Source: Eledone cirrhosa (Eukaryota). From it: a stretch of DNA of 64,000 nt. Positions 6,396 to 58,823 of the stretch are shown here, one piece after another. The notes under the pieces were generated by a model. That model did not search any database. It was given only the letters and a program-made list of their open reading frames with translations, and was not told where the DNA came from. How positions within the stretch are numbered: position 1 is the stretch's first letter; the number at the start of each line of letters is the position of its first letter. The stretch lies in NCBI GenBank assembly GCA_964016885.1, contig OZ024744.1:58342001-58406000 (forward strand), in the 5' to 3' direction. The translations under genes and the position numbers were made by a program.

Positions 6396-6428
<33 letters not shown>

Positions 6429-6530
6429 TATTATTATTATTACTGTCGTTATGTTTTTTGGGTTTTTTTCGTGCAATGGCCATACTCGATAACGAGGGGG
6501 CAGCCATCATGTATGTTGGTATGTATGTAC
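4439..6530 (+). mobile_element. RTE-clade LINE, 5'-truncated, with internal deletions and frameshifts
   Basis: RKHQDWFNEN, SGRSPGIDG, FVDLTKAFDTVNR, KQGD, LYADD, FIYLGS, LLYACETW, RLRWSGHLARM..RIPKQLFYGEL. Tail GAGGGGGCAGCCATC(ATGT)n. GT/TA microsatellite at ~6352-6440. Confidence 0.9.
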
Positions 6531-6532
6531 GT

Positions 6533-10451: not shown

Positions 10452-10558
10452 GAAGTAGTTCCACATCAGTTAATAAACAATTTCCGGTAACGGAGCTGAT
10501 GATCCGTTAAGGTGAAACAAATTGTCCTCGGCAATGGTTTACTAACTGTTGTGGAACT

Positions 10559-27500: not shown

Positions 27501-29598
27501 AGACACAGTGTAGATGTTAACTAGATATCTAGACACAGTGTGTAGATGTTAATTAGATATCTAGACACAGTGTGTAGATGTTAACTAGACATATAGACAG
27601 TGTGTATATGTTATTCAGATATATAGACACAGTGTGTAGATGTTAACTGGATATATAGACACGTTGTGTATATGTTAACTAGATATATAGACACAGTGTG
27701 TATATCTTATCCAGATATATAGACACAGTTTGTAGATGTTAATTAGATATATAGATACAGTGTGTAGATGTTAACTGGGTATGTACACAGTGTGTGTAGA
27801 TGTTAATTAGATATATAGACACAGTGTGTAGGTGTTAACTAGATATACAGACACAGTGTGTAGATGTTAACTAGATATATAGATACAGTGTGTAGGTGTT
27901 AACTAGATATATAGACACAGTGTGTATATGTTGACTGGATACTTAGAGAATGTGTGTAGATATTAACCAGATATATAGACACGGTGTATATATGTTAACT
28001 GGATATATAGACACGATGTGTAGACATTAACTAAATATATAGACAGTGTGTAGATGTTAACTGGATCTATAGACAGTGTTTAGATGTTAACTAGATATAT
28101 AGACACAGTGTGCAGATGTTAACCGGATATATGGAACCAGTGTGTAGATGTTAACTAGATATATAGACAGAGTGTATATATGTTAACCGGATATATAGAC
28201 ACGGTGTGTAGACATTAACTAAATATATAGACACAGCGTGTAGATGTTAACTGGATATATATATAGACAGTGTTTAGATGTTAACGAGATATATAAGACA
28301 CAGTGTGTATATGTTATCCAGATATATAGTCACAGTGTGTATATGTTAACTAGATATATATACACAGTGTGTAGATGTTATCCGGATATATAGAAACAGT
28401 GTGTAGATGTTAACTAGATACATAGACAGTGTGTAGATGTTAACTGGATCTATAGACACAGTGTGTAGAAGTTAACTCGATATATAGACACAGTGTGTAT
28501 ATATTAACTAGATATATAAGACCCAGTGTGTATATGTTAACTATATATATAGCCACAGTGTGTATATGTTATCCAGATATATAGACACAGTTTGTAGGTG
28601 TTAACTAGATATCTAGACACACAGGTATATGTTAACTAGATATATAGACAGTGTGTAGATGTTAACTAGATATATAGACACAGTGTGTAGATGGTAACTA
28701 GATATATAGACACAGTGTGTAGACATTAACTAGATATATAGGCAGAGTGTGTAGATGTTAACTGGATATATAGGCAGTGTTTAGATGTTAACTAGATATA
28801 TAGACACAGTGGGTAGGTGTTAAATAGATATATTGACAGTGTGTAGATGTTAACTAGATATATGGACACAGTGTGTATATGTTAACTGGATAAACAGACA
28901 GAGCGTGTAGATGTTAAATAGATATATAGACACAGTATGTATATGTTGACTAGATATATAGACACAGTGTGTATATGCTGACTGGATATACAGACTGTGT
29001 GTGTAGATATTAACTAGATATATAGACACAGTGTATATATATTAAGTGGATATATAGACACGGTGTGTAGACATTAACTAAATATATAGACAGTGTGTAG
29101 ATGTTAACTAGATATATAGACACAGTGTGTAGATGTTAACTGGATATATAGACACAGTGTGTAGATGTTAACTGGATATATAGACACAGTGTGTAGATGT
29201 TAACTGGATATATAGACACAGTGTGTAGATGTTAACTGGATATATAGACACGGTGTGTAGATGTTAACTGGATATATAGACACAGTGTGTAGATATTAGC
29301 TAGATATATAGACACAGTGTGTATATGTTAACTGGATATTTACACACAGTGTGCAGATGTTAACTGGATATATAAACCCAGTGTGTAGATGTTAACTAGA
29401 TATATAGACACAGTTTGTTGATGTTAACTAGATATATAGACCCAGTGTATAGACATTAACTAAATATATAGACAGTGTGTAGATGTTAACTAGATATATA
29501 GACAGTGTGTATAGACATTAACCAGATATATAGATACAATGTGTAGATGTTAACTGGATATATAGACAGTGTGTAGATGTTGACTATATATATAGATA

Positions 29599-32500
29599 TG
29601 TTTCTTTTATTTGCCACCAGGGCATCAAAAGTGGGACAAGTACAATGGGGGGAGTTTACAAAACAAGGCGTCCTCAATAAGGAGGAGGCAATAACAAAAT
29701 ATAAAAATAAAATAAAATAACAGAATAAAATTTATAACAAAATCCTCAATAGAGAGGAGGCGCCTTGGGGGGGTCGCGCCCCCCCCCCCCCCCGAAAAAA
29801 AGTGTGCAAGCCTTTTCCTCAGGATCACAGAGAAGGGGTGCTCCCTTGGTCTTTCATCTTCCTCACCTATAGTCTGATGTAGAGTGAAGGCCTATTCACA
29901 CGGGCCATTCTCGCCACTTTCACCCATCTTTCATAAAAGCGGCTGGCGTGCAGCACCTCTCTCTCCATCCTAATCCTTCTTCCGAAATGATATCGGAAGA
30001 AACGGACCAGTTGTTGGCCAGAGAGAAAGGTGTCTGACCTCAGTCCTTTCATACGCGTCCACCATACAACCTCTTTCGCCATGGCTATTACGCACAGAAA
30101 CACCGCCTCTTCTTCGTTTTTGAAGAGGGGAGGCGGCTTGATCGTTACAATAGACTCGGTGGTCAACCGGATCGGTCCCACCCTTGACAGCAGTTGTTCG
30201 ACATATCCCCACAGATCGGCAATGCCCGAGCAGTGTACCAATGCGTGTGCAACGGTTTCCTCGTCGCACACGCATCTGGGACAGATCTTTTTCGAGGGGT
30301 CCCTACCCGGGCGCCTGTGTCTGTAGAGCCTTTCTCGAACGGGCAGAGCCCTTCTGTAGCATTGCCAGGCCAGGGACCTCTGGAAGTTATCCATGGGTCC
30401 CGGGCTGAATGTCCTACCGAACAGGTTGGCCAGTTCGTCTTCCTCCATGCCTAGGGCTTCTCCGGGGGCGTCGTCGCACCTGCTAACCACCAGCCCTCTA
30501 TAGAATGACGAGGTGGATTCTCCACTGACGGCCGGGTTCGCCTGCCAGAGAGCCGTGAGCGCCTGGGCACACTCGGTGTGCCAGGCGCCCAGTTTTCTCG
30601 GTCTTTGCTTGACCCAGGATTGCAGCTCGGTGAGTGAGACGAGTCTGGGAAAGGCTCGCCTCACAAACGGGGCCCACACCGGTTGACCGGAGAGGAATAC
30701 CTGAAGGTGCTGTAGCCTTAATGTGTGTTTACGTATCATTAGCCACGGCATCCCCAGCCCTCCTTTCGAAGGGTGTTGACAGCAGATGGATCTCCTCACC
30801 ATAGGAGCCCGCTTCTTCCAAAGGAATTGGAAGAGTGCGCGCTCCATTTTGGCGAGCGTTTCCCTTGAGCAAGGCACAACGGTCAGGCGGTAGTAGATGA
30901 CGGACGCTATATAAGTGTTCGCCACCTCCGCCCGACCTTTCAGCGACAGTTTGCACTCGGCCCACTTCTGGGTCAGTGCAAACACCCTGTTCGTTACCTC
31001 CCCCCAGTTCTTCTCCACCTGGAGGTCTGGTCCGAACCAGACCCCGAGCAACTTCACCGGGCCCTCCGTCCAGCGCCCGACGACGCCATCGGAGGGCATC
31101 GATCTGCCCCTCCACGTGCCGAGTTGCAGACCGATCGACTTGTCCCGGTTCAGCTTAGCCCCTGTAAACCTTTCGTACTCCTCCAGTAAGGTGCCGATCG
31201 CCCCGATTTCCGAGGCCGTCGACACCATTACTGTTACGTCATCGGCGTAGGCTGACACCGCTTTCCGCAATCCCGGTTCCAACGGGATACCCTGCAACAA
31301 CTCCAACTTCCGCAGCAGTGGCTCTAGAATCATTACATACAGAAGGGAGGAGAGAGGGCACCCCTGTCGGATGGATCGCGCGATTTCGAACGGCTCCGAG
31401 AGGTAGCCGTTCACCTTGACCCTAGAGCAGATGCGGCTGCTGTGCATGGCATTGATCCAGCCCCTGAAAACGGGTCCGAAGCCTGCCGTCGCTAGCACCG
31501 CATCCAGGTAACCATGGTCGACCCTATCGAATGCCTTAGATTGATCCAAGTTGATCAGGGCCCCACCAAAGCCGGGTTCGTTCCCAACCCTCTCTATGAT
31601 GTATCGCATGAGGTGGAGGTTGTCGTGGATGGACCTGGACGGGATAGCACATGTCTGCGCATCTCCCACCAGGTTACCCACGACAAGCGCCAACCACTTT
31701 GCTAGCACCTTGGCCAAAATCTGTAACTCTGTATTTAGCAGAGTTATGGGCCTGAAATTATTTATATCGTCCTCCTTGTTCTCGTCCTTCCTCACTAGCG
31801 TGACTACGCCCTTGGTCACAGCACAGGGAATTCTGTTGCCAGTTGCAGTAGACCGCCTCGAGGATATCGGGGAACAAGTCCGGCATAGCTAGATATAGTT
31901 CGTATGGAAGCCCATCGAGACCCGGGGATTTGCGTTTGCCGCATTGGCTCAGCACGTCCTCTATCTCAGCGGCTGAAATCGGCTCCTCGCAGGACTTCGC
32001 CTCCCTGTCCGAGAGACGCGGCAGGCCGTCGAGGTATGGACCGAAGTCCACATCCCCAACCGGCTCCCCGCCCCTTCTGAACAATCCGGCAAAGTGCTTT
32101 TGAAAAGCCTCGCACATCTGCTTAGGTTCAAGGATCACCCGTCCATCCTGGTCTCGCAAAGACCGGATAGTGGATCTGCTCCATCTTTTGGCTTCTGTCA
32201 CGCGGGCCCAACTAAAAGCTTTGGTCCCCTCGTTTCCCAGAGCACGTATTTTGCTTCGGACGATGCAGCCTTCGTGTTTCGCGTCGAAGAACTGGCCCAG
32301 GGCCGTTCTCGACGCTAGCACTCTGGTCACGTCGCCGCTTCTAATTGCCTCTTCTACACTATCTACCAAATCCCTTTCCTTCCTATTTCTATTTGAGGCT
32401 AACTCCTTACTAAATTCTATAGAGACTACTCTAATCTCTCTTTTGAGAGATCCCCACCACCTGCTGTTGACGATGGCGCCTGTCAACCGCTCCTTAACTA

Positions 32501-33340
32501 AAGTGCTAATCCGGTTCCTGTAAGCCTTACTTGCCGGTAAGGACAAGTTGAGCTTCCAGTAACCGGGTCCCTGTCTATGAGTTCTGTCAAGGTTGACCAT
32601 GCAGGTCACTAACTTGTGGTCTGAATAGCCAACCATGCGCATTTTTGGACAACTTAAAAAGTCCTTATCCTTAATTCTAACTAAGAACCTATCTAGGTAC
32701 GACCTAGATGATCCGCTACGATTTGCCCAAGTCCAGGTTGGCGCAGTCGGAAAATCTAGTCGATATCTATCGGCCAGATCAAATCGACCGATTAACCCTT
32801 TGAGGCTATTACACCACTCTCTATCGGGACAGGCCCCTACGTAGTCCCAGCGTGCATCTAGGATACCATTCCAGTCCCCCACTAATAGCAAGGAGCGGGA
32901 CGTCCCTAGAAAAGTCTCCAGACGATGGAAGAAGTCCAGCCGCATTGACCCGAAAGGGCCGTAGGCGGCTACCAACATAAACGCTCCGCCTTTACCACTG
33001 CCAAGGTCCAGAACCACTAGTCGACCCTCCGGGTCCAAATGTACCATGTGTGTTGAGAGACCCAGATGTTTTTGCAGCAGAACGACAACCCCACCCCCAA
33101 CTCCGGGCTGACAGAGAGATGCGTGCATCTCAAAGTCATCAAAGGTGGGGGCCAGCTGTCGCACGTTGCTGATCCGGGCCTCGCAAATAACCATCACATC
33201 TATACGTTGTGACATGAGGTCATTTAGAAGCATTGCTTGCTTCCAAGTTGAGCCTAGGCCACGCGCATTTAAACAGCCTACTCTTAGCATGGCCATGTTG
33301 GTGGTGAAGAGAAAAGGCACTTACCTCTCTGCGTCCCGGG
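29599..33340 (-). mobile_element. Tx1-clade LINE, ORF2 essentially complete, 5'-truncated ~45 bp upstream of the ORF2 start
   Basis: APE endonuclease + RT + zinc knuckle; TATATAGATA on both sides (29589-29598, 33341-33350) as putative TSD; GC-rich against the AT-rich satellite. Confidence 0.93.
29867..33296 (-). pseudogene. ORF2 APE endonuclease-reverse transcriptase, one frameshift near 31830
   Basis: CLNARGL, ICEAR, VGDWN, SYLDRFLV, SDHK (APE); SPGLDGLPYE; FRPITLLN, LDQSKAFDRVDH, IRQGCPLS, AYADD, KLLGVWF; CPRC..ETVAHALVHC. Confidence 0.92.
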
Positions 33341-36300
33341 TATATAGATAGTGTGTATAAATGTTAACTGGATATATAGAATCAGTGTGTATATGGTAAC
33401 TAGATATATAGACACAGTATGTAGATGTTAACTGGATATATAGACACAGTATGTAGATGTTAACTAGATATATACACACAGTGTGCAGAGGTTAACTGGA
33501 TATATACACACAGTGTGCAGAGGTTAACTGGATATATAGACACAGTGTGTAGATGTTAACTAGATATATAGACACAGTGTGTAGATGTTAACTAGATATA
33601 TAGACACAGTGTGTAGATGTTGAGTGGATAAATAGACAGTGTGTAGATGTTAACTGGATATGTAGACACAGTGTGTAGATGTTAACTAGATATATAGACA
33701 CAGTGTGTATATATTGACTAGATATATAGACACAGTGTGTAGATGTTAACTATATATATATACACAGTCGTATATGTTAACTAGATATATAGACACAGTG
33801 TGTAGATGTTGACTGGATAAATAGACAGTGTGTAGATGTTAAATGGATATGTAGACACAGTGTGTAGATGTTAACTAGATATATAGTCACAATGTGTAGA
33901 TGTTAACTAGAGATATAGACAAAGTGTATATATGTTAACTAGATATATAGACAGTGTGTAGACATTAACTGGATATATAGACACAGTTTGTAGATGTTAA
34001 CTAGACATATAGACAGTGTGTAGATGATAACTTGATATATAGACACAGTGTGAAGAGGTTAACTGGATATATAGACACAGTGTGTATATGGTAACTAGAT
34101 ATATAGACACACTATGTAGATGTTAACTAGATATATAGACAGTATGTAGATGTTAACTAGATATATAGACACAGTGTGTATATGTTAACTAGATATATAG
34201 ACACACTATGTAGATGTTAACTAGATAGATAGACAGTGTGTAGATGTTAACTAGATATATAGACACAGTGTATAGATGTTCACTGGATATATAGACAGTG
34301 TGTAGATGTTAACTAGATATATGGACACAGTGTGTATATGTTAACTAGATATATAGACACAGTGTGTATATGTTGACTGGATATATAGACGGTGTGTGAA
34401 GATGTTAACTAGATATATAGACACAGTGTATATATGTTAACTGGATATATAGAGACGGTGTTTAGACATTAACTAAATATATAGACACAATGTGTAGAAG
34501 TTAACTGGATATATAGACACAGTGTGTAGATGTTAACTAGATATATAGACACAGTGTGTATATATTGACTAGATATATAGACACAGTGTGTAGATGTTAA
34601 CTATATATATATACACAGTGGTATATGTTAACTAGTTATATGGACAGAGTGTGTAGATGTTAACTAGATATATAGACGCAGTGTGTAGATGTTAACTAGA
34701 TATATAGACGCAGTGTGTAGATGTTAACTAGATATATAGTCACAATGTGTAGATGTTAACTAGATATATAGACATAGTGTGTATATGGTAACTAGATATA
34801 TAGAAACAGTGTGTACATGTTGTCTAGATATATAGACACAGTGTGTATATGTTGAATGGATATATAGAGAGTGTGTGTAGATGTTAACTAGATATATAGA
34901 CACGGTGTATATATGTTAACTGGATATATAGACACGGTGTTTAGACATTAACTAAATATATAGACACAGTGTGTATATGTTGCCTGGATATATAGACAGT
35001 GAGTGTAGATGTTAACTAGATATATAGACACTGTTCATATGTTAAATGGATATATAGACATGGTGTGTAGACATTAACAAAATATCTAGACAGTGTGTGT
35101 AGATGTTAACTAGATATATAGACAGTGTGTAGATGTTAACTATATATATAGACAGAGTGTATAGAGGTTAAGTGGACATATGGACACAGTGTGTAGATGT
35201 TAACTAGATATATAGACACAGTGAGTAGATGTTATCTAGATATATAGACATAGTGTGTATATGTTAATTAATATATAGTCACAGTGTGTATATGTTGACT
35301 AGATAGATAGACACAGTCTGTAAAGGTTAACTACATATATAGACGCAGTGTGTAGATGTTAACTAGAGATATAGACAAAGTGTATATATGTTAACTAGAT
35401 ATATAGACAGTGTGTAGACATTAACTGGATACACAGACAGTGTGTAGATGTTAACTAGACATATAGACAGTGTGTAGATGATAACTTGATATATAGATAC
35501 AGTATGTAGATGTTAACTAGATATATAGACACAGTGTGAAGAGGTTAACTGGATATACAGACACAGTATGTAGATGTTAACTAGATATATAGACAGTGTG
35601 TAGATGTTAACTAGATATACAGACACAGTGTGTAGATGTTAAGTAGATATATAGATACAGTGTGTCGATGTTAACTGGATATATAGACACAGTGTGTATA
35701 TGTTGACTGGATATATAGACACAGTGTGTAGATGCTAACTAGATATATAAGACTCAGTGTGTAGATGCTAACTAGATATATAAGACTCAGTGTGTATATG
35801 TTAAATAGATATATAGACAGTGTGTAGATGTTAACTAGATATATAGACACAGCGTGTAGATTTTAACTTGATATATTGACGTCATGTGTATATTTTAACT
35901 AGATATATAGATACAGTGTGTCGATGTTAACTAAGTATATAGGCACAGTATCTGGACGTTAACTAAATATATCGACACTGTGTATATATGTTAACTAGAT
36001 ATATGGACAGTGTGTGTAGATGTTAACTAGATATATAAACAGAGTGTATAGCTCTTAACTAGATATATAGTCACTGTGTGTAGACATTAACTAGATATAT
36101 AGTCACAGTGTGTAGATTTTAACTAGTTATATAGACACAGTGTGTAGATGTTAACTAGATATATAGACACAGTGTGTAGATGGTAACTAGATATAGAGAC
36201 ACATGTGTAGATGTTAACTAGATATATAGATACAGTGTGGAGATGTTAACTAGATATAGAGATACAGTGTGTAGATGTAAACTGGATATATAGACACAGT

Positions 36301-39300
36301 GTGTATATATTAACTAGATATATATACAGTGTGTAGATGTTAACTAGATATACAGACACAGTGTGTAGTTGTTAACTAGATATATAGATACAGTATGTAG
36401 ATGTTAACTAGATATATAGATACAGTGTGTATATGTTGACTGGATATATAGACAGTGTGTAGATGCTAACTAGATATATAAGTCCCAGTGTGTAGATGAT
36501 AACTAGATATATAGACACTGTGTGTATATGTTAACTAGATATATAGACACAGTGTGTCGAATTTAACTAGGTATATAGGCACAGTGTGTAGACGTTAACT
36601 AAATATATAGACACAGTGTATATATGTTAACTGGATATATAGACAGTGTGTGTTGATGTTAACTAGATATATAAACAGAGTGTATAGCTGTTAACTAGAT
36701 ATATAGTCACAGTGTGTAGATGTTAACTGGATATATAGAAACAGTGTATAAATGTTAACTAGATATATAGACAGTGTGTGTTGATGTTAACTAGATATAT
36801 AAACAGAGTGTATACCTGTTAACTAGATATATAGTCACAGTGTGTAGACATTCACTAGATATATAGACACACTGTGTAGATGTTAACTAGACATATAGAC
36901 ACAGTGGGTAGATGTTAACTAGATATATAGACACAGTGTGTAGATGTTAACTAGATATATAGACAGTGTGTAGATGTTATCTAGATATATAGATACAGTG
37001 TGTAGATGTTAACTGGATATATAAACACAGTGTGTATATATTAACTAGATATATAGCCACAGTGTGTAGATTTTAACTAGATATATAGACACAGTGTGTA
37101 GATTTTAACTAGATATATAGCCACAGTGTGTAGATTTTAACTAGATATATTGACACAGTGTGTAGATGTTAACTAGATATATAGACACATGTGTAGATGT
37201 TAACTAGATATATAGATACAGTGTGTAGATGTTAACTGGATATATAGAAACAGTGTATAAATGTTAACTAGATATATAGACAGTGTGTGTTGATGTTAAC
37301 TAGATATATAAACAGAGTGTATACCTGTTAACTAGATATATAGTCACAGTGTGTAGACATTCACTAGATATATAGACACAGTGTGTAGATGTTAACTAGA
37401 CATATAGACACAGTGGGTAGATGTTAACTAGATATATAGACACAGTGTGTAGATGTTAACTAGATATATAGACAGTGTGTAGATGTTATCTAGATATATA
37501 GATACAGTGTGTAGATGTTAACTGGATATATAAACACAGTGTGTATATATTAACTAGATATATATAGCCACAGTGTGTAGATTTTAACTAGATATATAGA
37601 CACAGTGTGTAGATTTTAACTAGATATATAGCCACAGTGTGTAGATTTTAACTAGATATATTGACACAGTGTGTAGATGTTAACTAGATATATAGACACA
37701 TGTGTAGATGTTAACTTGATATATAGATACAGTGAGTAGATGTTAACTGGATATAAAGACAGTGTGTATATATTAACTAGATATATAGCCAGAGTGTGTA
37801 GATTTTAACTGGATATATACACACAGTGTGTAGATTTTAACTAGATATATAGACACAGTGTGTAGATGTTAACTAGATATATAGCCACAGTGTGTATATG
37901 TTGCCTGAATATATAGACCCAGTGTGTAGATGTTAACTAGATATATAGACACAGTGTGTAGATGTTAACTAGATATATAGACAGAGTGTGTAGATGCTAA
38001 CTAGATATATAAGACTCAGTCTGTATATGTTAAATAGATATATAGACAGTGTGTAGATGTTAACTTGATATATTGACACTGTGTGTATATTTTAACTAGA
38101 TATATAGATACAGTGTGTCGATGTTAACTAAGTATATAGGCACAGTGTCTAGACATTAACTAAATATATAGACACAGTGTATATATGTTAACTAGATATA
38201 TAGACATTGTATGTAGATGTTAACTAAATATATAAACAGAGTGTATAGCTGTTAACTAGATATATAATCACAGTGTGTAGACATTAACTAGATATATAGT
38301 CACAGTGTGTAGATTGTAACTAGTTATATAGACACAATGTGTAGATGTTAGCTAGATATATAGACACGGTGTGTAGATGTGAACTAGATATATAGACAGA
38401 GTGTGTAGATGGTAAGTAATATGGATACAGTGTGTAGATGTTAACTGGATATATAGACACAGTGTGTAGATGTTAACTAGATATATAGACACAATGTGTA
38501 GATGTTAACTAGATATATAGATACAGTGTGTAGATCTTGACTCTATATATAGACCCAGTGGGTAGATGTTAACTAAATGTATTGACACAGTGTGTAGATG
38601 ATAACTAGATATATAAGACATAGTGTGTATATGTTAACTAGATATATAGACAGTGTGTAGATGTTAACTAGATATATAGACACACTTTGTATATGTTAAC
38701 TAGAATTACAGACATTGTGTAGATGTTGACTGGATATATGGAGCCAGTGTGTAGATGTTAACTAGATGTATAGACCCAGTGTGTAGACATTAACTAGATA
38801 TATAGACAGAGTGTGTAGATTATAACTAGATATATAGACAGAGTGTGTAGATGTTAACTGGATATATAGCCACAGTGTGTAAATGTTAACTAGATATATA
38901 GACACAGTGTGCAGATTTTAACTAGATATATAGACACAGTGTGTAGATGTTAACTAGATATACAGACACAGTGTGTAGATGTTAACTAGATATACAGACA
39001 CAGTGTGTAGATGTTAACTAGATATACAGACACAGTGTGTAGATGTTAACTAGATATATAGATACAGTGTGTAGATGTTAACTGGATATATAGACACAGT
39101 GTGTAGATGTTAACTAGATATATAGAAACAGTGTGTAGATGTTAAATAGATATATAGACACACTTTGTATATGTTAACTAGAATTACAGACAATGTGTAG
39201 ATGTTGACTGGATATATAGACCCAGTGTGTAGATGTTAACTAGATGTATTGACCCAGTGTGTAGACATTAACTAGATATATAGACACAGTGTATATATGT

Positions 39301-39535
39301 TAACTAGATATATAGACACGGTGTGTAGATGTGAACTAGATATATAGACAGAGTGTGTAGATGGTAAGTAATATGGATACAGTGTGTAGATGTTAACTGG
39401 ATATATAGACACAGTGTGTAGATGTTAACTAGATATATAGACACAATGTGTAGATGTTAACTAGATATATAGATACAGTGTGTAGATGTTGACTCTATAT
39501 ATAGACCCAGTGTGTAGATGTTAACTAAATGTATT

Positions 39536-39998
39536 AATAATAATAATAATAATGAAATTATTGTGTAAAGTGCTCAGGTGCACTACAACTCGTCAATATA
39601 GTACATAGAATAATACACAAATGCTAGGGAAGTACATGTTTGTATGTGTTAGCTGTAGTGTTGGCGGATCTCGGGAAGCATGGAGGCCTTAAAGGATGCA
39701 GTGTCTCGACAGCTAACAACTGATGCAGGTAGTTTGTTCCATGCTTCAGCAACTCTGAGCGTGAAAAAATGTTTCCGAAAGTCATGGAAACTGTGCTGTT
39801 TTCTTACTTTGTGGGCATGTCCACGTGTGTTAGACACATGGAAATCGAAAAGGCACTCAGGGTTGTTGTTGGCAACATGGTTAACAATTTTGTGGGTGTT
39901 TACCAAGTCAGTTGCCAGACGTCGGAGCTTCAATGAATCCATGCCCAGGGAAGCAAGGCGCTCAGAGTATGGTAGATGCCTGATGGAGGGTATTCGCT
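39536..39998 (-). mobile_element. CR1-clade LINE 3' end with (TTA)n tail inserted in the satellite
   Basis: RRLATDLV..TRGHAHKVRK..RKHFFTLRVAEAWNKLP; TSD TATT (39532-39535, 39999-40002); empty site at ~38571-38600. Confidence 0.9.
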
Positions 39999-42474
39999 TA
40001 TTGACACAGTGTGTAGATGATAACTAGATATATAAGACATAGTGTGTATATGTTAACTAGATATATAGACAGTGTGTAGATGTTAACTAGATATATAGAC
40101 ACACTTTGTATATGTTAACTAGAATTACAGACATTGTGTAGATGTTGACTGGATATATGGAGCCAGTGTGTAGATGTTAACTAGATGTATAGACGCAGTG
40201 TGTAGACATTAACTAGATATATAGACAGAGTGTGTAGATTATAACTAGATATATAGACAGAGTGTGTAGATGTTAACTAGATATATAGATAAAGTGTGTA
40301 GATGTTAACTGGATATATAGCCACAGTGTGTAAATGTTAACTAGATATATAGACACAGTGTGTAGATGTTAACTAGATATATAGACACAGTGTGTAGATG
40401 TTAACTAGACATATAGATACAGTGTGTAGATGTTAACTAGATATATAGACACCGTGTGTATATGTTAACTAGATATATAGCCACAGTTTGTAGATGTTAA
40501 CTTGATATCTAGACACAGTGTGTAGACATTCACTAGATATATAGACACAGTGTGTAGATGTTAACTAGATATATAAACACAGTGTGTAGATGTTAACTAG
40601 ATATATAGACACTGTGTGTAGATGTTAACTAGATATATAGACACTGTGTGTAAATATTAACTAGATATAAAGCCACAGTGTGTCAATGTTAACTAAGTAT
40701 ATAGGCACAGTGTCTAGACGTTAACTAAATATATAGACACAGTGTATATATGTTAACTAGATATATAGACAGTGTGTGTAGATGTTAACTAAATATATAA
40801 ACAGAGTGTATAGCTGTTAACTAGATATATAGTCACTGTGTGTAGACATTAACTAGATATATAGTCAGTGTGTAGATTTTAACTAGTTATATAGACACAG
40901 TGTGTAGATGTTAACTAGATATATAGACACAGTGGGTAGATGTTAACTAGATATATAGACACAGTGTGTAGATGTTAACTGGATATATAGACACTGTGTG
41001 TAGATGTTAACTAGATATATAGTCAGTGTGTAGATTTTAACTAGTTATATAGACACAGTGTGTAGATTTTAACTAGTTATATAGACACAGTATGTAGATG
41101 TTAACTAGATACATAGACATAGTGTGTAGATGTTAACTAGATATATAGACAGAGTCTGTAGATGGTAAGTAATATAGATAAAGTGTGTAGATGTTAACTG
41201 GATATATAGACACAGTGTGTAGATGTTAACTAGATATATAGACACAATGTGTAGATGTTAACTAGATATATAGACAGTGTGTAGATGTTAACTAGATATA
41301 TAGACACACTTTGTATATGTTAACTAGAATTACAGACAACGTGTAGATGTTGACTGGATATATAGACCCAGTGTGTAGATGTTAACTAGATGTATAGACC
41401 CAGTGTGTAGACATTAACTAGATATATAGACACAGTGTATATATGTTAATTAGATATATAGACACAGTGTGTAGATGTTAACTAGATATATAGAAACAGT
41501 GTGTAGATGTTAACTAGATATACAGACACAGTGTGTAGATGTTAACTAGATATATAGATACAGTGTGTAGATGTTAACTGGATATATAGACACTGTGTGT
41601 ATATGTTAACTAGATATATAGCCACAGTTTGTAGATGTTAACTTGATATATAGACACAGTGTGTAGACATTCACTAGATATATAGACACAGTGTGTAGAT
41701 GTTAACTAGATATATAAATACAGTGTGTAGATGTTAAATAGATATATAGACACTGTGTGTAGATGTTAACTAGATATATAGACACTGTGTGTAAATATTA
41801 ACTAGATATAAAGCCACAGTGTGTCGATGTTAACTAAGTATATAGGCACAGTGTCTAGACGTTAACTAAATATATATAGACACAGTGTATATATGTTAAC
41901 TAGATATATAGACAGTGTGTGTAGATGTTAACTAAATATATAAACAGAGTGTATAGCTGTTAACTAGATATATAGTAACTGTGTGTAGACATTAACTAGA
42001 TATATAGTCAGTGTGTAGATTTTAACTAGTTATATAGACACAGTGTGTAGATGTTAACTAGAAATATAGACACAGTGGGTAGATGTTAACTAGATATATA
42101 GACACAGTGTGTAGATGTTAACTGGATATATAGACACTGTGTGTAGATGTTAACTAGATATATAGTCAGTGTGTAGATTTTAACTAGTTATATAGACACA
42201 GCGTGTAGATTTTAACCAGTTATATAGACACAGTGTGTAGATGTTAACTAGATACATAGACACAGTGTGTAGATGTTAACTAGATATATAGACAGAGTCT
42301 GTAGATGGTAAGTAATATAGATAAAGTGTGTAGATGTTAACTGGATATATAGACACAGTGTGTAGATGTTAACTAGATATATAGACACAATGTGTAGATG
42401 TTAACTAGATATATAGACAGTGTGTAGATGTTAACTAGATATATAGACACACTTTGTATATGTTAACTAGAATT

Positions 42475-45400
42475 ACAGACACAGTGTGTAGATTATAACT
42501 AGATATATAGACAGAGTGTGTAGATGTTATCTAGATATATAGATACAGTGTGTAGATGTTAACTGGATATATAGACACCGTGTGTATATGTTAACTAGAT
42601 ATATAGCCACAGTGTGTAGATGTTAACTAGATATATAGACACAGCATGTATATGTTGACTGGATATATAAACAAAGTGTATAGATGTTGACTGTATATAT
42701 AGAAACAGTGTGTATATGTTAACTAGATATACAGACAGTGTTTATATGTTAACTGGATATATAGACACAGTGTGCAGATGTTAACTAGATATATAGACAC
42801 AGTGTGTAGATGTTAACTAGATATATAAACACAGTGTGTATATGTTAACTGGATATATAGACACACTGTGTATATGTTAACTAGATATATAGATAAAATG
42901 TGTAGATGTTAACTGGGTAAATAGACAGTGTGTAGATGTTAACGAGATATATAGACACAGTGTGTATATGTTAACTATATATACATAGAGTGTGTAGATG
43001 TTGACTGGATATATAGACACAGTGTGTAGATTTTAACTAGATATATAGACAGTGTGTAGATGGTAACTATATATATATATATATATATATATACAGTGTG
43101 TAGATGTTCCTGTGTGTAGATGTTAACTGGATATATAAACAGTGTGTCTAGATGTTAAGTAGATATATAGACACAGTGTGTATATGTTAACTAGATATAG
43201 AGACACAGTGTGTATATGTTAACTAGATATATATACACAGTGTGTAGATGGTAACTGGATATATTGACACAGTGTGTATATGTTAACTGGATATATAGAC
43301 ACAATATGTAGATGTTAACTAGATATATAGACACAGTGTGTATATGTTAACTAGATATATAGATACAGTGTGTAGATGTTAACTGGATATATAGACACTG
43401 TATATATATTAACTGGATATATAGATACAGTGTGTAGATGTTAACTAGATATATAGACAGTGTGTTTGTGTTAACTAGATATATAGACACAGTATGTATA
43501 TGTTATCTGGATATATAGACACAGTGTGTATATGTTAACTCGATATATAGACACATTGTGTATATGTTAATTAGATATATAAACAGTGTGTAGATGTTGA
43601 CTAGATATATAGACACAGTGTATAGATGTTAACTAGATATATAGACACAGCGTGTAGATGTTATCTAGATATATAGACACAGTTTGTAGACATTAACTAG
43701 ATATATATACACAGTTTGTAGACATTAACTAGATATATAGACACAGTGTGTAGATGTTAACTAGATATATAGACCCAGTGTGTAGATATTAACTAGATAT
43801 ATAGACACAGTGTGTAGATATTAACTAGATATATAGACACAGTGTGTAGATGTTAACTAGATGTATAGACCCAGCGTGTAGACATTAACTAGATATATAG
43901 ACACAGTGTATATATGTTAACTAGATATATAGACACAGTGTGTAGATGTTAACTAGATATACAGACACAGTGTGTAGATTATAACTAGATATATAGACAG
44001 AGTGTGTAGATGTTATCTAGATATATAGATACAGTGTGTAGATGTTAACTGGATATATAGACACCGTGTGTATATGTTAACTAGATATATAGCCACAGTG
44101 TGTAGATGTTAACTAGATATATAGACACAGCATGTATATGTTGACTGGATATATAAACAAAGTGTATAGATGTTGACTGTATATATAGAAACAGTGTGTA
44201 TATGTTAACTAGATATACAGACAGTGTTTATATGTTAACTGGATATATAGACACAGTGTGCAGATGTTAACTAGATATATAGACACAGTGTGTAGATGTT
44301 AACTAGATATATAAACACAGTGTGTATATGTTAACTGGATATATAGACACACTGTGTATATGTTAACTAGATATATAGATAAAATGTGTAGATGTTAACT
44401 GGGTAAATAGACAGTGTGTAGATGTTAACGAGATATATAGACACAGTGTGTATATGTTAACTATATATACATAGAGTGTGTAGATGTTGACTGGATATAT
44501 AGACACAGTGTGTAGATTTTAACTAGATATATAGACAGTGTGTAGATGGTAACTATATATATATATATATATATATATACAGTGTGTAGATGTTCCTGTG
44601 TGTAGATGTTAACTGGATATATAAACAGTGTGTCTAGATGTTAAGTAGATATATAGACACAGTGTGTATATGTTAACTAGATATAGAGACACAGTGTGTA
44701 TATGTTAACTAGATATATATACACAGTGTGTAGATGGTAACTGGATATATTGACACAGTGTGTATATGTTAACTGGATATATAGACACAATATGTAGATG
44801 TTAACTAGATATATAGACACAGTGTGTATATGTTAACTAGATATATAGATACAGTGTGTAGATGTTAACTGGATATATAGACACTGTATATATATTAACT
44901 GGATATATAGATACAGTGTGTAGATGTTAACTAGATATATAGACAGTGTGTTTGTGTTAACTAGATATATAGACACAGTATGTATATGTTATCTGGATAT
45001 ATAGACACAGTGTGTATATGTTAACTCGATATATAGACACATTGTGTATATGTTAATTAGATATATAAACAGTGTGTAGATGTTGACTAGATATATAGAC
45101 ACAGTGTATAGATGTTAACTAGATATATAGACACAGCGTGTAGATGTTATCTAGATATATAGACACAGTTTGTAGACATTAACTAGATATATATACACAG
45201 TTTGTAGACATTAACTAGATATATAGACACAGTGTGTAGATGTTAACTAGATATATAGACCCAGTGTGTAGATATTAACTAGATATATAGACACAGTGTG
45301 TAGATATTAACTAGATATATAGACACAGTGTGTAGATGTTAACTAGATGTATAGACCCAGCGTGTAGACATTAACTAGATATATAGACACAGTGTATATA

Positions 45401-46035
45401 TGTTAACTAGATATATAGACACAGTGTGTAGATGTTAACTAGATATACAGACACAGTGTGTAGATTATAACTAGATATATAGACAGAGTGTGTAGATGTT
45501 ATCTAGATATATAGATACAGTGTGTAGATGTTAACTGGATATATAGACACCGTGTGTATATGTTAACTAGATATATAGCCACAGTGTGTAGATGTTAACT
45601 AGATATATAGACACAGCATGTATATGTTGACTGGATATATAAACAAAGTGTATAGATGTTGACTGTATATATAGAAACAGTGTGTATATGTTAACTAGAT
45701 ATACAGACAGTGTTTATATGTTAACTGGATATATAGACACAGTGTGCAGATGTTAACTAGATATATAGACACAGTGTGTAGATGTTAACTAGATATATAA
45801 ACACAGTGTGTATATGTTAACTGGATATATAGACACACTGTGTATATGTTAACTAGATATATAGATAAAATGTGTAGATGTTAACTGGGTAAATAGACAG
45901 TGTGTAGATGTTAACGAGATATATAGACACAGTGTGTATATGTTAACTATATATACATAGAGTGTGTAGATGTTGACTGGATATATAGACACAGTGTGTA
46001 GATTTTAACTAGATATATAGACAGTGTGTAGATGG

Positions 46036-46072
<37 letters not shown>

Positions 46073-46835
46073 TGTGTAGATGTTCCTGTGTGTAGATGTT
46101 AACTGGATATATAAACAGTGTGTCTAGATGTTAAGTAGATATATAGACACAGTGTGTATATGTTAACTAGATATAGAGACACAGTGTGTATATGTTAACT
46201 AGATATATATACACAGTGTGTAGATGGTAACTGGATATATTGACACAGTGTGTATATGTTAACTGGATATATAGACACAATATGTAGATGTTAACTAGAT
46301 ATATAGACACAGTGTGTATATGTTAACTAGATATATAGATACAGTGTGTAGATGTTAACTGGATATATAGACACTGTATATATATTAACTGGATATATAG
46401 ATACAGTGTGTAGATGTTAACTAGATATATAGACAGTGTGTTTGTGTTAACTAGATATATAGACACAGTATGTATATGTTATCTGGATATATAGACACAG
46501 TGTGTATATGTTAACTCGATATATAGACACATTGTGTATATGTTAATTAGATATATAAACAGTGTGTAGATGTTGACTAGATATATAGACACAGTGTATA
46601 GATGTTAACTAGATATATAGACACAGCGTGTAGATGTTATCTAGATATATAGACACAGTTTGTAGACATTAACTAGATATATATACACAGTTTGTAGACA
46701 TTAACTAGATATATAGACACAGTGTGTAGATGTTAACTAGATATATAGACCCAGTGTGTAGATATTAACTAGATATATAGACACAGTGTGTAGATATTAA
46801 CTAGATATATAGACACAGTGTGTAGATGTTAACTA
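42475..46835. repeat. Three near-identical ~1.49-kb higher-order repeat units of the satellite
   Basis: Marker TGTTCCTGTGTG at 43105, 44591, 46081; unit starts near 42475, 43961, 45447. Confidence 0.9.
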
Positions 46836-47069
46836 GATATATATATACAGTGTGTAGATGTTAACTGGATATATTGACACTGTGTGTATATGTTAACTAG
46901 ATATATATAGACACAGTGTGTAGACATTAACTAGATATATAGACACTGTGTGTAGATGTTAACTGGATATATAGACACAGTGTGTAGATGTTAACTGGAT
47001 ATATAGTCACAGTGTGTTGGTATTGATTGACTGGATACATATTGAAAGTATTGGCTTGACAGATAAATA

Positions 47070-47170
47070 CAGGATGTTCCCTCAAAATGTATACACACTG
47101 CAACAGCTGTCTAATAAATATTGCCGCTACAGGTAATCAAAGTGTGTATACATTTTTGGGGGATACTCTG
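47070..47170. mobile_element. 101-bp Tc1/mariner-type MITE
   Basis: TA|CAGGATGTTCCCTCAAAATGTATACACACT ... AGTGTGTATACATTTTTGGGGGATACTCTG|TA; ~30-bp imperfect TIRs and TA TSD. Confidence 0.75.
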
Positions 47171-47699
47171 TATATTATGAAGATTGTGATTGACATGCAG
47201 TGTATATTGTTGATTGGATACATAGACGTTATGTGTAGATGTCTTTTTTAATGACGTGACATGGAATATGTCGTACCAATGGCGTTTGCATGGCATCCGA
47301 AGCTGGTCGTTGATGCTTAGTGTTCCTGTTGAATAGTTGTAGGTTGATGGCTACTTTAAGAATATAGCCATGCAGGGAATTCTAAAGGGTAGAGATTCTT
47401 GGAGAAAGTCCTGAGAATAAGTGGTTAGTCGGTGCCTGGCATCTGGGAGTGAACACAGTGTGGGTGAACACAGTGTGGGTGACGAAAGAGGAAATATCCG
47501 AATGGAGATAAAACCAGCTAACCAGCCATGTAGAAGAGAGACCACCGAAGTCGCAGTAGAAGAGCCACAATGAGGAAACATGTGGGTCAGTGGTTGGAAT
47601 GTGGGTCAGCGGTTGGAATGTATTATTAGGGGGTTATTTATCCAGCACCCTTGATTATTTTCATGAAGAATAGTTATCATTCATAATCAGATATGTGAA

Positions 47700-48250
47700 G
47701 AGTAAAGATAACTGCTTTTCTATTTAAGAACGCTTTATAATATTTCATGATTTTTTCAGAATAACAGGTGAAGAAACTTCAAAGAAAATATTAGACTTCT
47801 TGGTTAAGTCTCAATCCAAATTTTAAAAACTGCGTATGTCAAGTATATGCACAGGTTATTTTAAAGAAGAATAAGCTCTGCTAAGTAAAGGCACAAATTA
47901 GACAACAGAATTCAAATCTGATATTTGGGGTTATTAAACATATTTAGATACATTTGTATGTGTATTGAATTAAAGTTCTCACATTAGTCCTTCATATCAA
48001 CTTTGTAAATAGAGTCTCAAGATGCCCTATTAGATGATTAGACATGGCAAGGATTGACATTGATCAATTCCGAGCAGATATCCTGAAACAGAGAAATGGA
48101 ATGCTATACTTGAAGAAGCAATTATTTCAGAATGAATCTGTTCAACAAAATAGCTGGTTGTGTTGCTGATTGTTATTAATGCCACTTTTCTGTAGCCAGG
48201 GTCATTTGAGGAATATTCGATTTTGTAGCACTTCAAGCAATTAAAAGAGA
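47700..48250 (+). pseudogene. Possible highly decayed hAT-like transposase fragment
   Basis: Broken frames give ITGEETSKKILDFL, NFKNCVCQVY, GLTL, PETEKWNAILEEAI, loosely like hAT motifs TGE.., CRGQ.YD, ETRW. Confidence 0.3.
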
Positions 48251-48469: not shown

Positions 48470-48660
48470 AATTTAGGTCCAAGGCCATCGAATTTGAGGA
48501 AGGGCAAAGATGATTAAATCAACCTCAGTACTTGGCTAGTACTTTATTTTATCGATCACAGAAAGAAGAAAGGTAAAGTTGAGCTCAGAATGTAAAGAAT
48601 CAGAACAAATACCACAATGACATTTTAACCGACGTTCTACCAATTCTGCCAATCCATCAC
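48470..48660 (-). mobile_element. tRNA-derived SINE (Octopus-type)
   Basis: Reverse complement GATGGATTGGCAGAATTGGTAGAACGTCGG...TTCTGAGCTCAAC...GATCGATAAAATAAAGTAC. Confidence 0.75.
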
Positions 48661-48878
48661 TCTTGTTGCTCGCACCAATATTGACGATGTTTACAAACAA
48701 TGACCGCCATTCAGAGTAGCTCATATAACAGATTGTATCAATCAATGTCCGACTAAAAGCAACAAAAGTTTGCTCCTCTCCATTTCTCTTCTAACTATTT
48801 TTTGTGTTTTTTCTTTTTCTTTTCCTTTTTTTCTTACTCTTTTTGTTTTGTTTTGTTATTATAATATTGTAAACCAGG

Positions 48879-49225
48879 ATGGTGGATTGGCAGTATCGGT
48901 AGGGCGTCGGACAATATGCTTTGCAGCATATAGTTACGTCCCTTTACGTTCTGAGTTCGAATCCCGCCGAGATTAGGTTTGCCTTTCAATCTTATAGGAT
49001 CGATAAAATAAAATGCCAGTTACGGACTGGGGTCGATTTAATTGACTTTTCCCTCCCCTATAATGCTGGCCTTGTGCCTATATAAGAAACCATTATTATC
49101 CCTTTATGGTCTGAGTTCAAATCCCGCCGAGGTTAACTTTGCCTTTCATCCTTACGGGGTCGATAAAATAAATTACCAGTAATGCACTGGGTAATTGCTG
49201 GCCTTGTGCCAAAAGTAGAAACAAT
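48879..49225 (+). mobile_element. Tandem tRNA-derived SINE copies (full + partial)
   Basis: GGTGGATTGGCAGTATCGGTAG...GAGTTCGAATCCCGCCGAG...GTCGATAAAATAAA...GCTGGCCTTGTGCC. Confidence 0.8.
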
Positions 49226-49490
49226 TATTATATTAAACGGAAAAAATGAAACGAAATTTCATTTCCCACTCTTAGTACGGCTGTTACTTAAATATAAGTA
49301 TGTACACGTACATACATATATGTATACAGACGTCCAGTAGCATGTATATATATATATACATACATACACACATATATATATGTACGTATGGGTTCACCGA
49401 ACATTTATTATAATGCTCAGCGTGTCTGTAAACAAACATCCCGTATTAAGCCGTAGTGTCTAGCAACCACCGTTGCTCGTTTGTTCAACA

Positions 49491-49559
49491 CTGACAAAGG
49501 AACGGTGTACTAGTTTCAAGCTTATTAGCTATCGTCAGCAACGTATACCTTCCTGCCAG
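49491..49559 (-). ncRNA. Type I hammerhead ribozyme
   Basis: Reverse complement CGTTG-CTGACGA-TAGCTAATAAGCTT-GAAACTAGTA^CACCG. Confidence 0.8.
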
Positions 49560-49883
49560 ATGATTGAACGTCCGAAAGTATATACTTTCCTTATGCATAT
49601 TAACGGCTGAGTAGTCCAATTTGCATATCGAGTGGGTTAATCGGCCGGGTGCACCGAAAACGATAAACGGAAAAAATGAAACGAAATTTCATTTCCCACT
49701 CTTAGTATAGCTGTTACTTAAATATAAGTATGTATACGTACATACATATATGTATACAGACGTACAGTAGTATGTATATATACATACATGCACACACATA
49801 TATATATGTACGTATGGATTCACCGAACATTTATTATAATGCTCGGTGTGTCTGTAAACAAACATCCCGTATTAAGCTGTCAT

Positions 49884-49952
49884 CTGGCAGGAAGGTATAC
49901 GTTGCTGACGATAGCTAATAAGCTTGAAACTAGTACAGCGTTCCTTTGTCAG
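49884..49952 (+). ncRNA. Type I hammerhead ribozyme
   Basis: CGTTG-CTGACGA(49905-49911)-T-AGCT-AATA-AGCT-T-GAAAC-TA-GTA^(49935)-CAGCG; palindromic stem III ACTAGT; extended bulged stem I. Confidence 0.85.
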
Positions 49953-50169
49953 TGTTGAACAAACGAGAAACGGTGGTTGCTAGACACTACGGCTTAATAC
50001 GGGATGTTTGTTTACAAACACACTGAGCTTTATAATAAATGTTCGGTGAACCCATACGTACATATATATATGTGTGCATGTATGTATATATATATACATA
50101 CTACTGTACGTCTGTATACATATATGTATGTACGTATACATACTTATAATTATTATATTGTAAACGTAA

Positions 50170-50350
50170 AAGGTCGGTTGATTGGCAATACCGGACGCTT
50201 TGCTTTGCAGCAAAGAGTTATGGCCCTTTATGATCTGAGTTCAAATCCCGCTGAGGTTAACTTTACCTTTCATCCTTACGGGGTCGATAAAATAAAGTAC
50301 CAGTAATACACTGTGATAATTGCTGGCCTTGTGCCAAAAGTAGAAACAAT
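50170..50350 (+). mobile_element. tRNA-derived SINE
   Basis: GAGTTCAAATCCCGCTGAGGTTAAC...GGGGTCGATAAAATAAAGTACCAG. Confidence 0.8.
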
Positions 50351-51059
50351 TATATTGTAAACGTATTTTTATATATATCAAACTCATATATAAATGAATC
50401 TATAAATGGGGTTTCGATACCTGCCAAGAGTTACCAAATAGTGAAATTGATTTTTTTTTTATGATTCAATTAAGTCACATATTATATATTAAATTTTTCC
50501 TTTTCTTTTCGTTCTTTCTTTCATTCTTCATTTATTTATTGCTTCTGTTCTATATAGAACAAAAAGAAAGAGAAGAATAAGCCTTTATTCTATAAGACGT
50601 TCTTTCGTTTGACCGTTCTGCTTCTCCGAGGGGCAAAACCAATGGTATTGCAAAGGTTTTACCCGGGAGTTGTCATGCAGGATTTAAGAAAAATATTTAA
50701 GAAAATCAGATTGAGTTTTATTTATTTATTTGTTTGTTTGTTTGTTTGTTTGTTTGTTTGTTTGTTTGTTTGTTTGTTTGTTTGTTTGTTTGCTTGCTTG
50801 TTTGTTTGTTTGTTTGTTTGTTTGCTGCGGCTGTTAGTTTGTTTGTTTATTAGTTTATTTGCTGCGGCTGTTTATAAAAGGAAGAAGAAAAAACAGTACA
50901 ACTGCTCGTATTTTTATTAAAGTTTTTATTATTTGTTCATCGTTTTCCGTTATTTGATATAAACTGTAAATTTATAAACTGTATATTTATTTATTTATTT
51001 ATTTATTTATTCATTTTTTATTTTTATTTTACAAACATCGCCTACTGGCGTATTATTAT

Positions 51060-51425
51060 TATGGTGGATTGGCAGTATCGGTAGAGGGTCGGACGCCATG
51101 CTTTGACGCATAGAGTTACGGCCCTTGCCATTCTTAGTTCAAATCCTGCCGAGGTTAACTTTGCCTTTCATCCTTACGGGGTTGATAAAATAAAGTACCA
51201 GTAATGTCCTGGATAATTGCTGGGCTTGTACCAAAAGTAGAAATAATTATTACAAATAGATTTTATATTGAAGACTGGATTATATGTAACAATTATTGAT
51301 ATTATTATTTTTGTTGTTATTGTTGAGGTTAACTTTGCCTTTCATCCTTACGGGGTAGATAAAATAAAGTACCAGTAATACAATAGTTGGTTTGCTGGCC
51401 TGGTGCCAAAAGTAGAAACAATTAG
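51060..51425 (+). mobile_element. tRNA-derived SINE plus partial 3' copy
   Basis: Same family as 48879; second partial copy at 51324-51420. Confidence 0.8.
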
Positions 51426-54964: not shown

Positions 54965-55228
54965 ATAAAACCATATTTATTCTATTATATATATTTCAAG
55001 GGTACCAAAACTTTGGTACGCTTTCACCAGATAAACTACAAAGTTTGTTTTATAAATTTTGACATATCCAAGAAGAAGATGCCTTAACTATCCAAGGAAA
55101 ACCTGAACTGTTAAGGTATCTTTTTCTTGATTACGTCAATATTTATAAAACACACTTTGTATTTTATCTGATGAAAGCGTACCAAAGTTTTGGTACCCTT
55201 GAAATATATATAATAGAATAAATATGGT

Positions 55229-58043: not shown

Positions 58044-58295
58044 TATATGTTGGTTTTTTACCGACACCTCAGTATGCGGATTGGAGCACTCGACGAAGTA
58101 CGCAGGTTGGTTTGGTTACTCCGAAGTAATGTAAAGTAATTAAGTCAAATATATAAAATTTGGCTTCGTTTATTAAAGATGTACTGCTATATATATTTCG
58201 GTGACAGCCATCATTGGCTGTGACTTCTTCAGGCAGTCCAAATTAGTGTGGTAGAGACAGGTACACATGTTGTTAAAGTGTTTTACTCCGTCAAT

Positions 58296-58410
58296 ACTCC
58301 GATATGTCCAGCTCCTGGTTGGGTTGTTGTTTCTCTGAGGAACTGGAATCATATAAGATTCCAGTTCCTCGAGAAATAACAACCCAACCAGGAGCGGGAC
58401 ATATCGGAGT
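58296..58410. other. 115-nt near-perfect hairpin (55-bp arms, 6-nt loop)
   Basis: ACTCCGATATGTCC...GGAACTGGAATC-ATATAA-GATTCCAGTTCC...GGACATATCGGAGT. Confidence 0.9.
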
Positions 58411-58823
58411 GGTCTTTGAAATATGTATAATAAAATAAATATGGTTTTATAAATATAGTTTCCATTTCTTAATATATTGTATATATATATATATAACGAA
58501 GGAGGAGTGGTAAGGAACCAGATGGACAATAACGCACCAGAGTACAGAAATAGCCGTCGAAACGGCTTGAGCTCTGCCGTCGGGGTCTAACATTTTCATA
58601 TATATATATATATACATATATATATATGTATGATTTATGTGTGTGTGTGTGTGCATACATATTTGTATGTACATTTGTATGTATATACATGTACATATAT
58701 GTATGTACACACACACACATACACACACACTCACATATATATGTATATATGTTATATATATATATGTTATATATATATATAAATGTTATATATATATATA
58801 TGTGTGTGTACATATATGTGCTC

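Follow-up and report, generated by a model that had tools for sequence, protein, structure and literature searches.

A noncoding, hammerhead-bearing repeat of a cephalopod genome with probable marks of Penelope-type insertion

A 913-bp insert in the genome of Eledone cirrhosa, with an outer span of 49223-50159 in our 64-kb window (i.e., the whole stretch of DNA that was analyzed), is probably a dispersed copy of an abundant, noncoding tandem unit—a non-LTR retrozyme—that was placed at an AT-rich site by a Penelope-like reverse transcriptase (RT)/GIY-YIG endonuclease acting in trans. It adds one more family to the non-LTR retrozymes already described, and its signs of Penelope-type insertion are unusually clear. 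Retrozymes of this kind are already known from corals, mussels, amphibians, and fish, and a further family is unsurprising; this one is of use as a test case. In their available text, the papers treat as hypotheses both the identity of the enzyme that mobilizes animal retrozymes and the circularity of its template. Here, a noncoding unit shows the tail and the inversion specific to Penelope insertions and predicts two exact start sites and one cut site; it is also a high-copy repeat that Rfam misses.

How is the insert built? Its left target-site duplication, the 12-bp AATTATTATATT at 49223-49234 (+), ends on a T that doubles as the first letter of the unit; the right duplication, again AATTATTATATT, at 50148-50159 (+), overlaps the end of the inverted copy by its first five letters, four of which match. 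A 12-letter match at the insert boundaries was reached in 23 of 20,000 shuffles. Three segments lie between the duplications. The full unit (49234-49663) is 430 bp long with 38% GC and no coding frame, and its ribozyme sense is the minus strand. Beside it stands a 5′-truncated tandem copy (49664-49880, minus strand) of its first 221 positions (49234-49454), which has the tail and stops before the ribozyme, followed by an inverted, 5′-truncated copy (49880-50152, plus strand) that runs from unit position 49563 down to 49289 and has the ribozyme without the tail. Along the minus strand, in ribozyme sense, the inverted truncated copy comes first, then the truncated tandem copy, and the full unit last. 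Against the unit, the partial tandem copy has 11 differences in 217 aligned letters and the inverted copy 9 in 268, the third comparison among the segments giving 7 in 157; the opposed arms are 97% complementary. Both tandem pieces end at 49234, whereas the inverted piece stops 55 nt earlier, at 49289. The 55-nt tail that separates the two ends (49234-49288, minus strand) has a predicted hairpin and lies between two putative RT start sites, 49234 and ~49289. A TA/CA-rich, self-complementary segment (49290-49389, minus strand) is predicted to form a long hairpin and is the source of spurious microRNA matches. No stop-to-stop frame wholly within the insert exceeds 76 aa, and two longer frames, of 86 and 102 aa, extend from it into the flank. 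The layout and the frames agree with the sequence-only reading, which had described a 430-bp monomer with a partial tandem and an inverted copy, free of open reading frames (ORFs) and flanked by a 12-bp duplication.

Each strand of the insert holds one complete catalytic core (CUGANGA, GAAA, and NUH), as had been claimed from the motif CUGACGA...GAAAC-UA-GUA in both orientations. The first copy, a predicted type I hammerhead at 49496-49552 on the minus strand, has its C3 at 49538 and a predicted cut after A49508; the second, predicted at 49891-49947 on the plus strand, has its C3 at 49905 and a predicted cut after A49935, the two cores being ~370 bp apart. Both follow one design: a helix I of six pairs with a UAU/U internal loop and further pairs beyond, a helix II of four pairs over a U.U at its base, and a helix III of two pairs (AC-UA-GU) with a palindromic 2-nt loop. 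The plus-strand copy has helices I/II/III of 6/4/2 pairs, with all six proximal stem I pairs intact, and the minus-strand copy keeps five of six in helix I, with one U x C mismatch from a G at 49505, a letter carried by about 1% of family reads or fewer. Stem III ACUAGU, the U.U pair closing stem II, and the bulged stem I of the sequence-only reading are therefore all present, with the qualification of that mismatch. Our structural descriptor for the hammerhead found no match in 60 shuffled 64-kb windows. The Rfam search that had been suggested as a check was negative, although a match to a model is not what defines the fold: it gave no hit in the window at the gathering score, and at E ≤ 10 over 49150-50250 no hammerhead family was among the 101 matches, with TA-hairpin microRNA noise instead. 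By free-energy folding of short pieces, the predicted lowest-energy fold is not the ribozyme, and the plus copy has a z of −0.3 to −1.2.

Judged by its predicted helices, the ribozyme is the canonical metazoan type I form and not, as first proposed, the minimal one: as described in PMC4209133, the minimal form is without helix III and has a helix II of 7-8 bp, and the canonical metazoan form has 6/4/2-type helices. The same source describes opposite-strand hammerhead pairs 100-700 bp apart, and with 5′ inverted copies also published (PMC8557442), no special meaning of the two opposed ribozymes is supported. Because the partial copy carries no ribozyme, the ribozyme at this locus, as far as its sequence predicts, could neither release a monomer nor form a dimer in cis.

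Is the predicted fold conserved outside this genome? Exact-pattern scans yielded no match in a metagenome collection and none in a viral collection. A looser pattern returned one metagenome contig (L001), which keeps 30 of 31 core letters and has a predicted ribozyme at 739-795 (+). Between this contig and the unit, both sides have changed in 7 of 15 pairs, including all six in proximal stem I, with pairing kept—a covariation that rests on one outside sequence, found with the pattern that fixed the core. One of 500 shuffles reached such re-pairing, and slid controls were 24-47% paired, as against 98%. A very loose pattern gave 118 loci in the viral collection, which were used as a control only; none of the 117 with enough flank to score reaches a stem I of at least 5 with a stem II of at least 3. 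The conserved pairing suggests selection on the ribozyme. The contig itself has a 78-nt terminal direct repeat (1-78 and 1076-1153) and a possible tandem unit of ~1,075 nt, carries TAACCC-like repeats, lacks any frame as long as 100 aa, and is perhaps another ribozyme-bearing repeat family. A second, weak match to the unit, which covers 43 nt at 74% with an E of 0.005 and runs opposite to the contig's ribozyme, was treated as chance.

How would such a structure arise? In published accounts, Penelope-type insertions consist of a full copy with a truncated tandem copy ahead of it; an inverted copy, also truncated, often adjoins, and a tail of 30-40 bp stands at one end (PMC8557442). In vitro, the protein cuts and extends both strands with a preference for ATT, and reverse transcription starts at two internal RNA sites, the tail being the stretch between them (PMC11167929). 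The insert has the partial tandem copy, the adjacent 5′ inverted copy, and the one-end tail listed among integration features in PMC8557442. Mobilization by Penelope RT/GIY-YIG, as the first reading had it, stands as the best reading, since the tail, the 5′ inversion, and the AT-rich target match published integration. Both putative primer ends read ATT, a triplet common in such DNA and weak alone.

We propose a cycle in which tandem source loci would be transcribed and two ribozymes would pair through their palindromic stem III, cutting out 430-nt monomers; these may be ligated into circles, which would stay uncut since stem III is weak in a single copy. The endonuclease would then nick both target strands 12 nt apart. 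One strand would prime at start site 1 (49234) and copy 647 nt, or 1.5 units; the other would prime at start site 2 (~49289), with a 4/5 match to the target end, and copy ~275 nt. Joining of the two truncated cDNAs at 49880 would produce both the inversion and the opposed ribozymes, which are likely an insertion scar. This copy was probably dead on arrival and is unlikely to give a monomer: each strand has a single ribozyme, which in a read-through RNA would be bound up with its own antisense arm.

What served as the template—a circle or a tandem RNA? The 1.5-mer fits both equally well, in keeping with the earlier statement that either was compatible. Because both cDNAs cross the predicted cut site, the template would have been either religated or uncut. 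We lean slightly toward a monomer circle rather than an uncut tandem RNA: both cDNAs run through the cleavage site, and a weak helix III allows efficient cutting as a dimer and poor cutting alone (PMC4209133, PMC7229834). The alternative is an uncut linear tandem transcript with no circle, the ribozyme being slow or a passive passenger and only the template step differing; we rate it somewhat below an even chance. In PMC11167929, as far as its available text goes, ribozyme mutants were without effect on insertion in vitro, making the ribozyme dispensable, and unprocessed linear RNA was the main substrate; in 10.64898/2026.07.22.740005, eight of nine predicted dimers did not cleave, a result noted against the circle. 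At 49426, moreover, the inverted copy has the family's common letter, and the unit agrees with the partial copy on one that ~0.3-2.5% of the family carry, which would suit different template units. However, an RNA with two ribozymes should be cut as a dimer (according to PMC4209133 and PMC7229834), yet both cDNAs run across the cut site. The segments also agree on minority letters at 49266, 49395, 49470, and 49563, which is what a single template would give; one back-mutation or conversion would explain 49426, and the conserved pairing described above suggests a ribozyme under selection. The three segments, which disagree at 49426 and 49419 and are not perfectly star-like, may stem from one template or from several.

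How does the unit occur elsewhere? Reads from 4 of 23 public runs were mapped on 49223-49663 (441 bp) at 85% likeness: 10,477 contigs from X1, which may be the window's own source; 127 contigs from X5; 2,980 contigs from X4, which carries a second organism label; and 75,392 raw reads from X21, which comes from another sample and study. The other 19 runs were left out; they come from among X2-X3, two other RAD runs, and 16 runs with a smaller share or from the same sample. Among the joints listed, the head-to-tail joint 49663 → 49234 is the best supported in all four runs, including the second organism (17 contigs in X1, 1 in X5, 3 in X4, and 1,300 reads from at least about 128 start places in X21). 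In X21, where the depth at 49658-49663 is 2,874, this joint and three near variants account for 1,547 reads (54%), which is probably an undercount because reads with a short overhang cannot be placed. Since the junction is fixed and reads cross it into the next unit, 430 nt is the length of a unit and not the product of chance truncation of a coding element. At the other end, 67 contigs of X1 have loose ends at 49234 that run into TA repeats (agreement 0.6). Because these ends recur at one place, the copies are not randomly permuted at the 3′ end, and random circular permutation is not supported. The same 67 contigs speak for start site 49234; start site ~49289 is thinly represented, by this locus, by one X5 contig with a loose end at 49289 that likewise runs into TA repeats, and by four weak strand-switch joints in X21 (49278-49281 → 49522-49561), which fall at the tail boundary with one or two start places each.

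These reads bear on an improbable alternative, in which the insert would be no more than the 3′-terminal pseudo-LTR of a coding Penelope-like element, randomly truncated, and 430 bp simply the length at which this copy ended. The layout is indeed that of a textbook truncated Penelope insertion, the window contains a broken Penelope-type coding sequence and hammerhead-like stubs, and the loose ends listed are 24 of 779. However, the joint recurs in every run and under both organism labels, the point variants around it look inherited, and it makes up at least 54% of the depth at the unit end in X21. None of the 24 of 779 loose ends listed lies at 49663 or provides a constant alternative continuation past it, and the unit holds no coding remnant. 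Nor does the insert contain an ORF, or the remnant of one, for an RT and GIY-YIG between pseudo-LTRs. The pseudo-LTR reading is largely refuted. The condition under which the sequence-only reading would have been refuted, a coding element joined to every copy, was not seen: reads at the unit's end mostly enter the next unit.

Is the ribozyme kept across the family? Among the variants listed (40 of 86, on which the following P values and counts rest), none affects the 26 positions that make up the core and stems II and III, with 37 variant places among 375 covered. The probability of such avoidance is 0.06 over the unit and 0.003 against the local 106 nt, a window chosen afterwards; the 11 invariant core positions alone, also free of listed variants, give P = 0.31, without significance. 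In the ribozyme centre, only N7 and loop II vary among the variants listed. At the stem I pair 49541/49505, the letter frequencies of three of five read sets are consistent with an exchange of U.G, A-U, and G.U, and those of X1 and X4 show a poor covariation fit; frequencies are not haplotypes. The fixed junction and a core free of listed variants uphold the earlier picture of a ~430-nt, nonautonomous unit with a type I hammerhead conserved across copies. In X4, the depth peaks over the ribozyme, with 102,966 at 49508-49522 against 809 at 49463-49477 (~100-fold), read depths not being copy numbers.

Other features of the mapped reads point to diversity within the family or to the libraries. 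X21 holds diverged subfamilies, with constant alternative sequence before 49298 (24,203 reads) and before 49480 (11,395 reads). In X5, two contigs continue differently behind 49326, a sign, perhaps, of a partner or of a sister element. Read ends in X21 at 49258, 49618, and 49621, along with large loose ends at 49254-49255, were rejected as element ends because they coincide with AATT sites, and appear to be restriction-library effects.

A possible promoter lead lies ~80 nt upstream of the ribozyme, where the octamer ATGCAAAT occupies 49619-49626 on the minus strand; this motif may be an snRNA-type promoter element. It occurs four times in the 64-kb window, with 0.027 expected per 430 nt, and X4 has a depth peak at 49598-49627, the segment that holds it. 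The promoter of newt satellite 2 has an octamer element. That promoter is of the snRNA type, as reported in PMC2220036. On the unit's sense strand, patterns for the Pol III A and B boxes gave no match. Put together, the insert could come from a cephalopod retrozyme that records its whole cycle—octamer-promoted unit, dimer cutting, circle, and Penelope reverse transcription from two fixed sites past the ligated cut site—a composite that we advance tentatively and hold to be rather less probable than its failure at some step.

The reading least able to survive, that the family is a satellite spreading as DNA and the locus a product of DNA repair with fold-back or of assembly error, is very improbable: the locus's own inversion junction is absent among the 15 of 80 joints listed from the mapped reads, no mapped read or contig spans the stretch, and the best-covering run may be the window's own source, but the 12-bp duplication stands at both ends, the three segments differ mutually by 3-5%, which an assembly duplication would not give, and the family's ends recur at 49234 beside TA repeats.

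Is there an autonomous partner? None was found in the window. A broken Penelope-type gene at 13830-15307 on the minus strand has RT pieces, a thumb, a cysteine cluster, and a GIY-YIG-like end, interrupted by frameshifts and stops. Its best relative is P0001, a predicted protein of 803 aa that bears the name of Octopus vulgaris, to which four pieces are 57-64% identical; P0001 matches RVT_1 weakly, and another relative matches GIY-YIG weakly at its C terminus, in each case below Pfam's cut-offs, and the remnant pieces themselves match no Pfam family at E < 0.05. This remnant was rejected as a demonstrated partner of the unit: the two share no DNA, and 23 related proteins gave no match to the insert better than E 0.07.

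The surroundings of the insert are rich in other repeats. Copies of an octopus-like short interspersed element (SINE) cluster round it at 48871-49222, 50169-50348, 51090-51424, and 48501-48667 (−); together with the best relative of the Penelope-type remnant, they make an octopus the probable host. On either side of the copy at 50169-50348 lies a 17-letter repeat (at 50152 and 50349) that overlaps the retrozyme's right duplication, so that insertions are nested at one AT-rich site. The sister SINE tail that had been pointed out at ~50341-50363 as an uninterrupted counterpart does fit the reconstructed empty site; it is in fact one copy of this 17-letter repeat, which is probably the next SINE's own duplication. 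A second, unrelated hammerhead-like motif at 55160-55225 (+) has a long stem II and a palindromic AUAUAUAU stem III, with a damaged-looking inverted partner ~150 bp away at ~54975-55030 (−); by its sequence it is probably another Penelope-type inverted stub. A third such motif, at 58180-58240 (−), lies near a 115-bp, near-perfect palindrome (58296-58410), and a short sequence at 58430-58475 is common to the 55-kb stub. Two hammerhead-core-like motifs, at 10485-10545 (+) and 18571 (+), both fail the strict descriptor, the former lying within a ~190 bp segment between TA/GA and CT/TA microsatellites. Long frames judged by eye from their translations to be LINE-like endonuclease/RT or RNase H-like are found at 29867-33320 (−), 338-1174 (+), and 4449-6556 (+). 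About 24 kb, at ~20000-30000 and 34000-48000, has a strong and steady GC skew of ~+0.25 to +0.4 and no long frames, and is perhaps a tandem array.

How does the insert compare with known systems? By title or abstract start, we found no literature on cephalopod retrozymes, whereas supplements of survey papers may list octopus hammerheads, and none on retrozyme tails or twin priming. With the metazoan non-LTR retrozymes described in PMC7229834 (coral, 220-245 nt; mussel, 350-390 nt; axolotl, 330/350 nt), the insert shares a noncoding head-to-tail unit, a GC content below 50%, a canonical type I ribozyme, a target-site duplication longer than 4 bp, and Penelope-like elements in the same genome; its U.U at the base of helix II and its two-pair helix III resemble axolotl HHR_Amex2 of the same source. 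It differs in the length of its unit, which at 430 nt stands at the top of the 150-450 bp range, in having 1.5 units and an inverted copy with one ribozyme per strand, in its cephalopod host, and in that its circles and cleavage are predicted. Among features tested as marks of a retrozyme, we found a unit of 150-450 bp, GC below 50%, a fixed junction, and a duplication above 4 bp; two or more consecutive ribozyme-bearing units are absent at this locus, and for the family the mapped reads and contigs are too short to show them. The locus likewise lacks the two consecutive ribozymes by which 10.64898/2026.07.22.740005 defines an active retrozyme.

Penelope-like insertions, as set out in PMC8557442 and PMC11167929, have in common with the insert a partial tandem, an adjacent 5′ inverted copy, a one-end tail, AT-rich or (TA)n targets, putative nicks at ATT, and a ribozyme near the end. 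Unlike them, the insert has no ORF, nor any sign of one past the unit, its tail is 55 nt rather than 30-40 nt, and its junction is fixed across copies. With the hammerheads of PMC4209133, it shares the type I fold, a palindromic helix III suited to dimers, and opposite-strand pairs 100-700 bp apart; from the minimal form described there it differs in being canonical, with a helix II of 4 bp rather than 7-8 bp and a helix III that is present. Vertebrate non-LTR retrozymes, presented as Penelope derivatives in 10.64898/2026.07.22.740005, are nonautonomous monomers or short tandems as well, with Penelope machinery likewise proposed. The evidence of that preprint is co-occurrence and the phylogeny of pseudo-LTRs, and tails and inverted copies play no part in its main text ("tail" and "mollus" occur 0 times there, and "inverted" only in a reference). 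If the circle cycle holds, the insert would add evidence at the level of a single locus that animal retrozyme circles are templates of a Penelope enzyme—a role that the available literature has so far argued from co-occurrence and homology.
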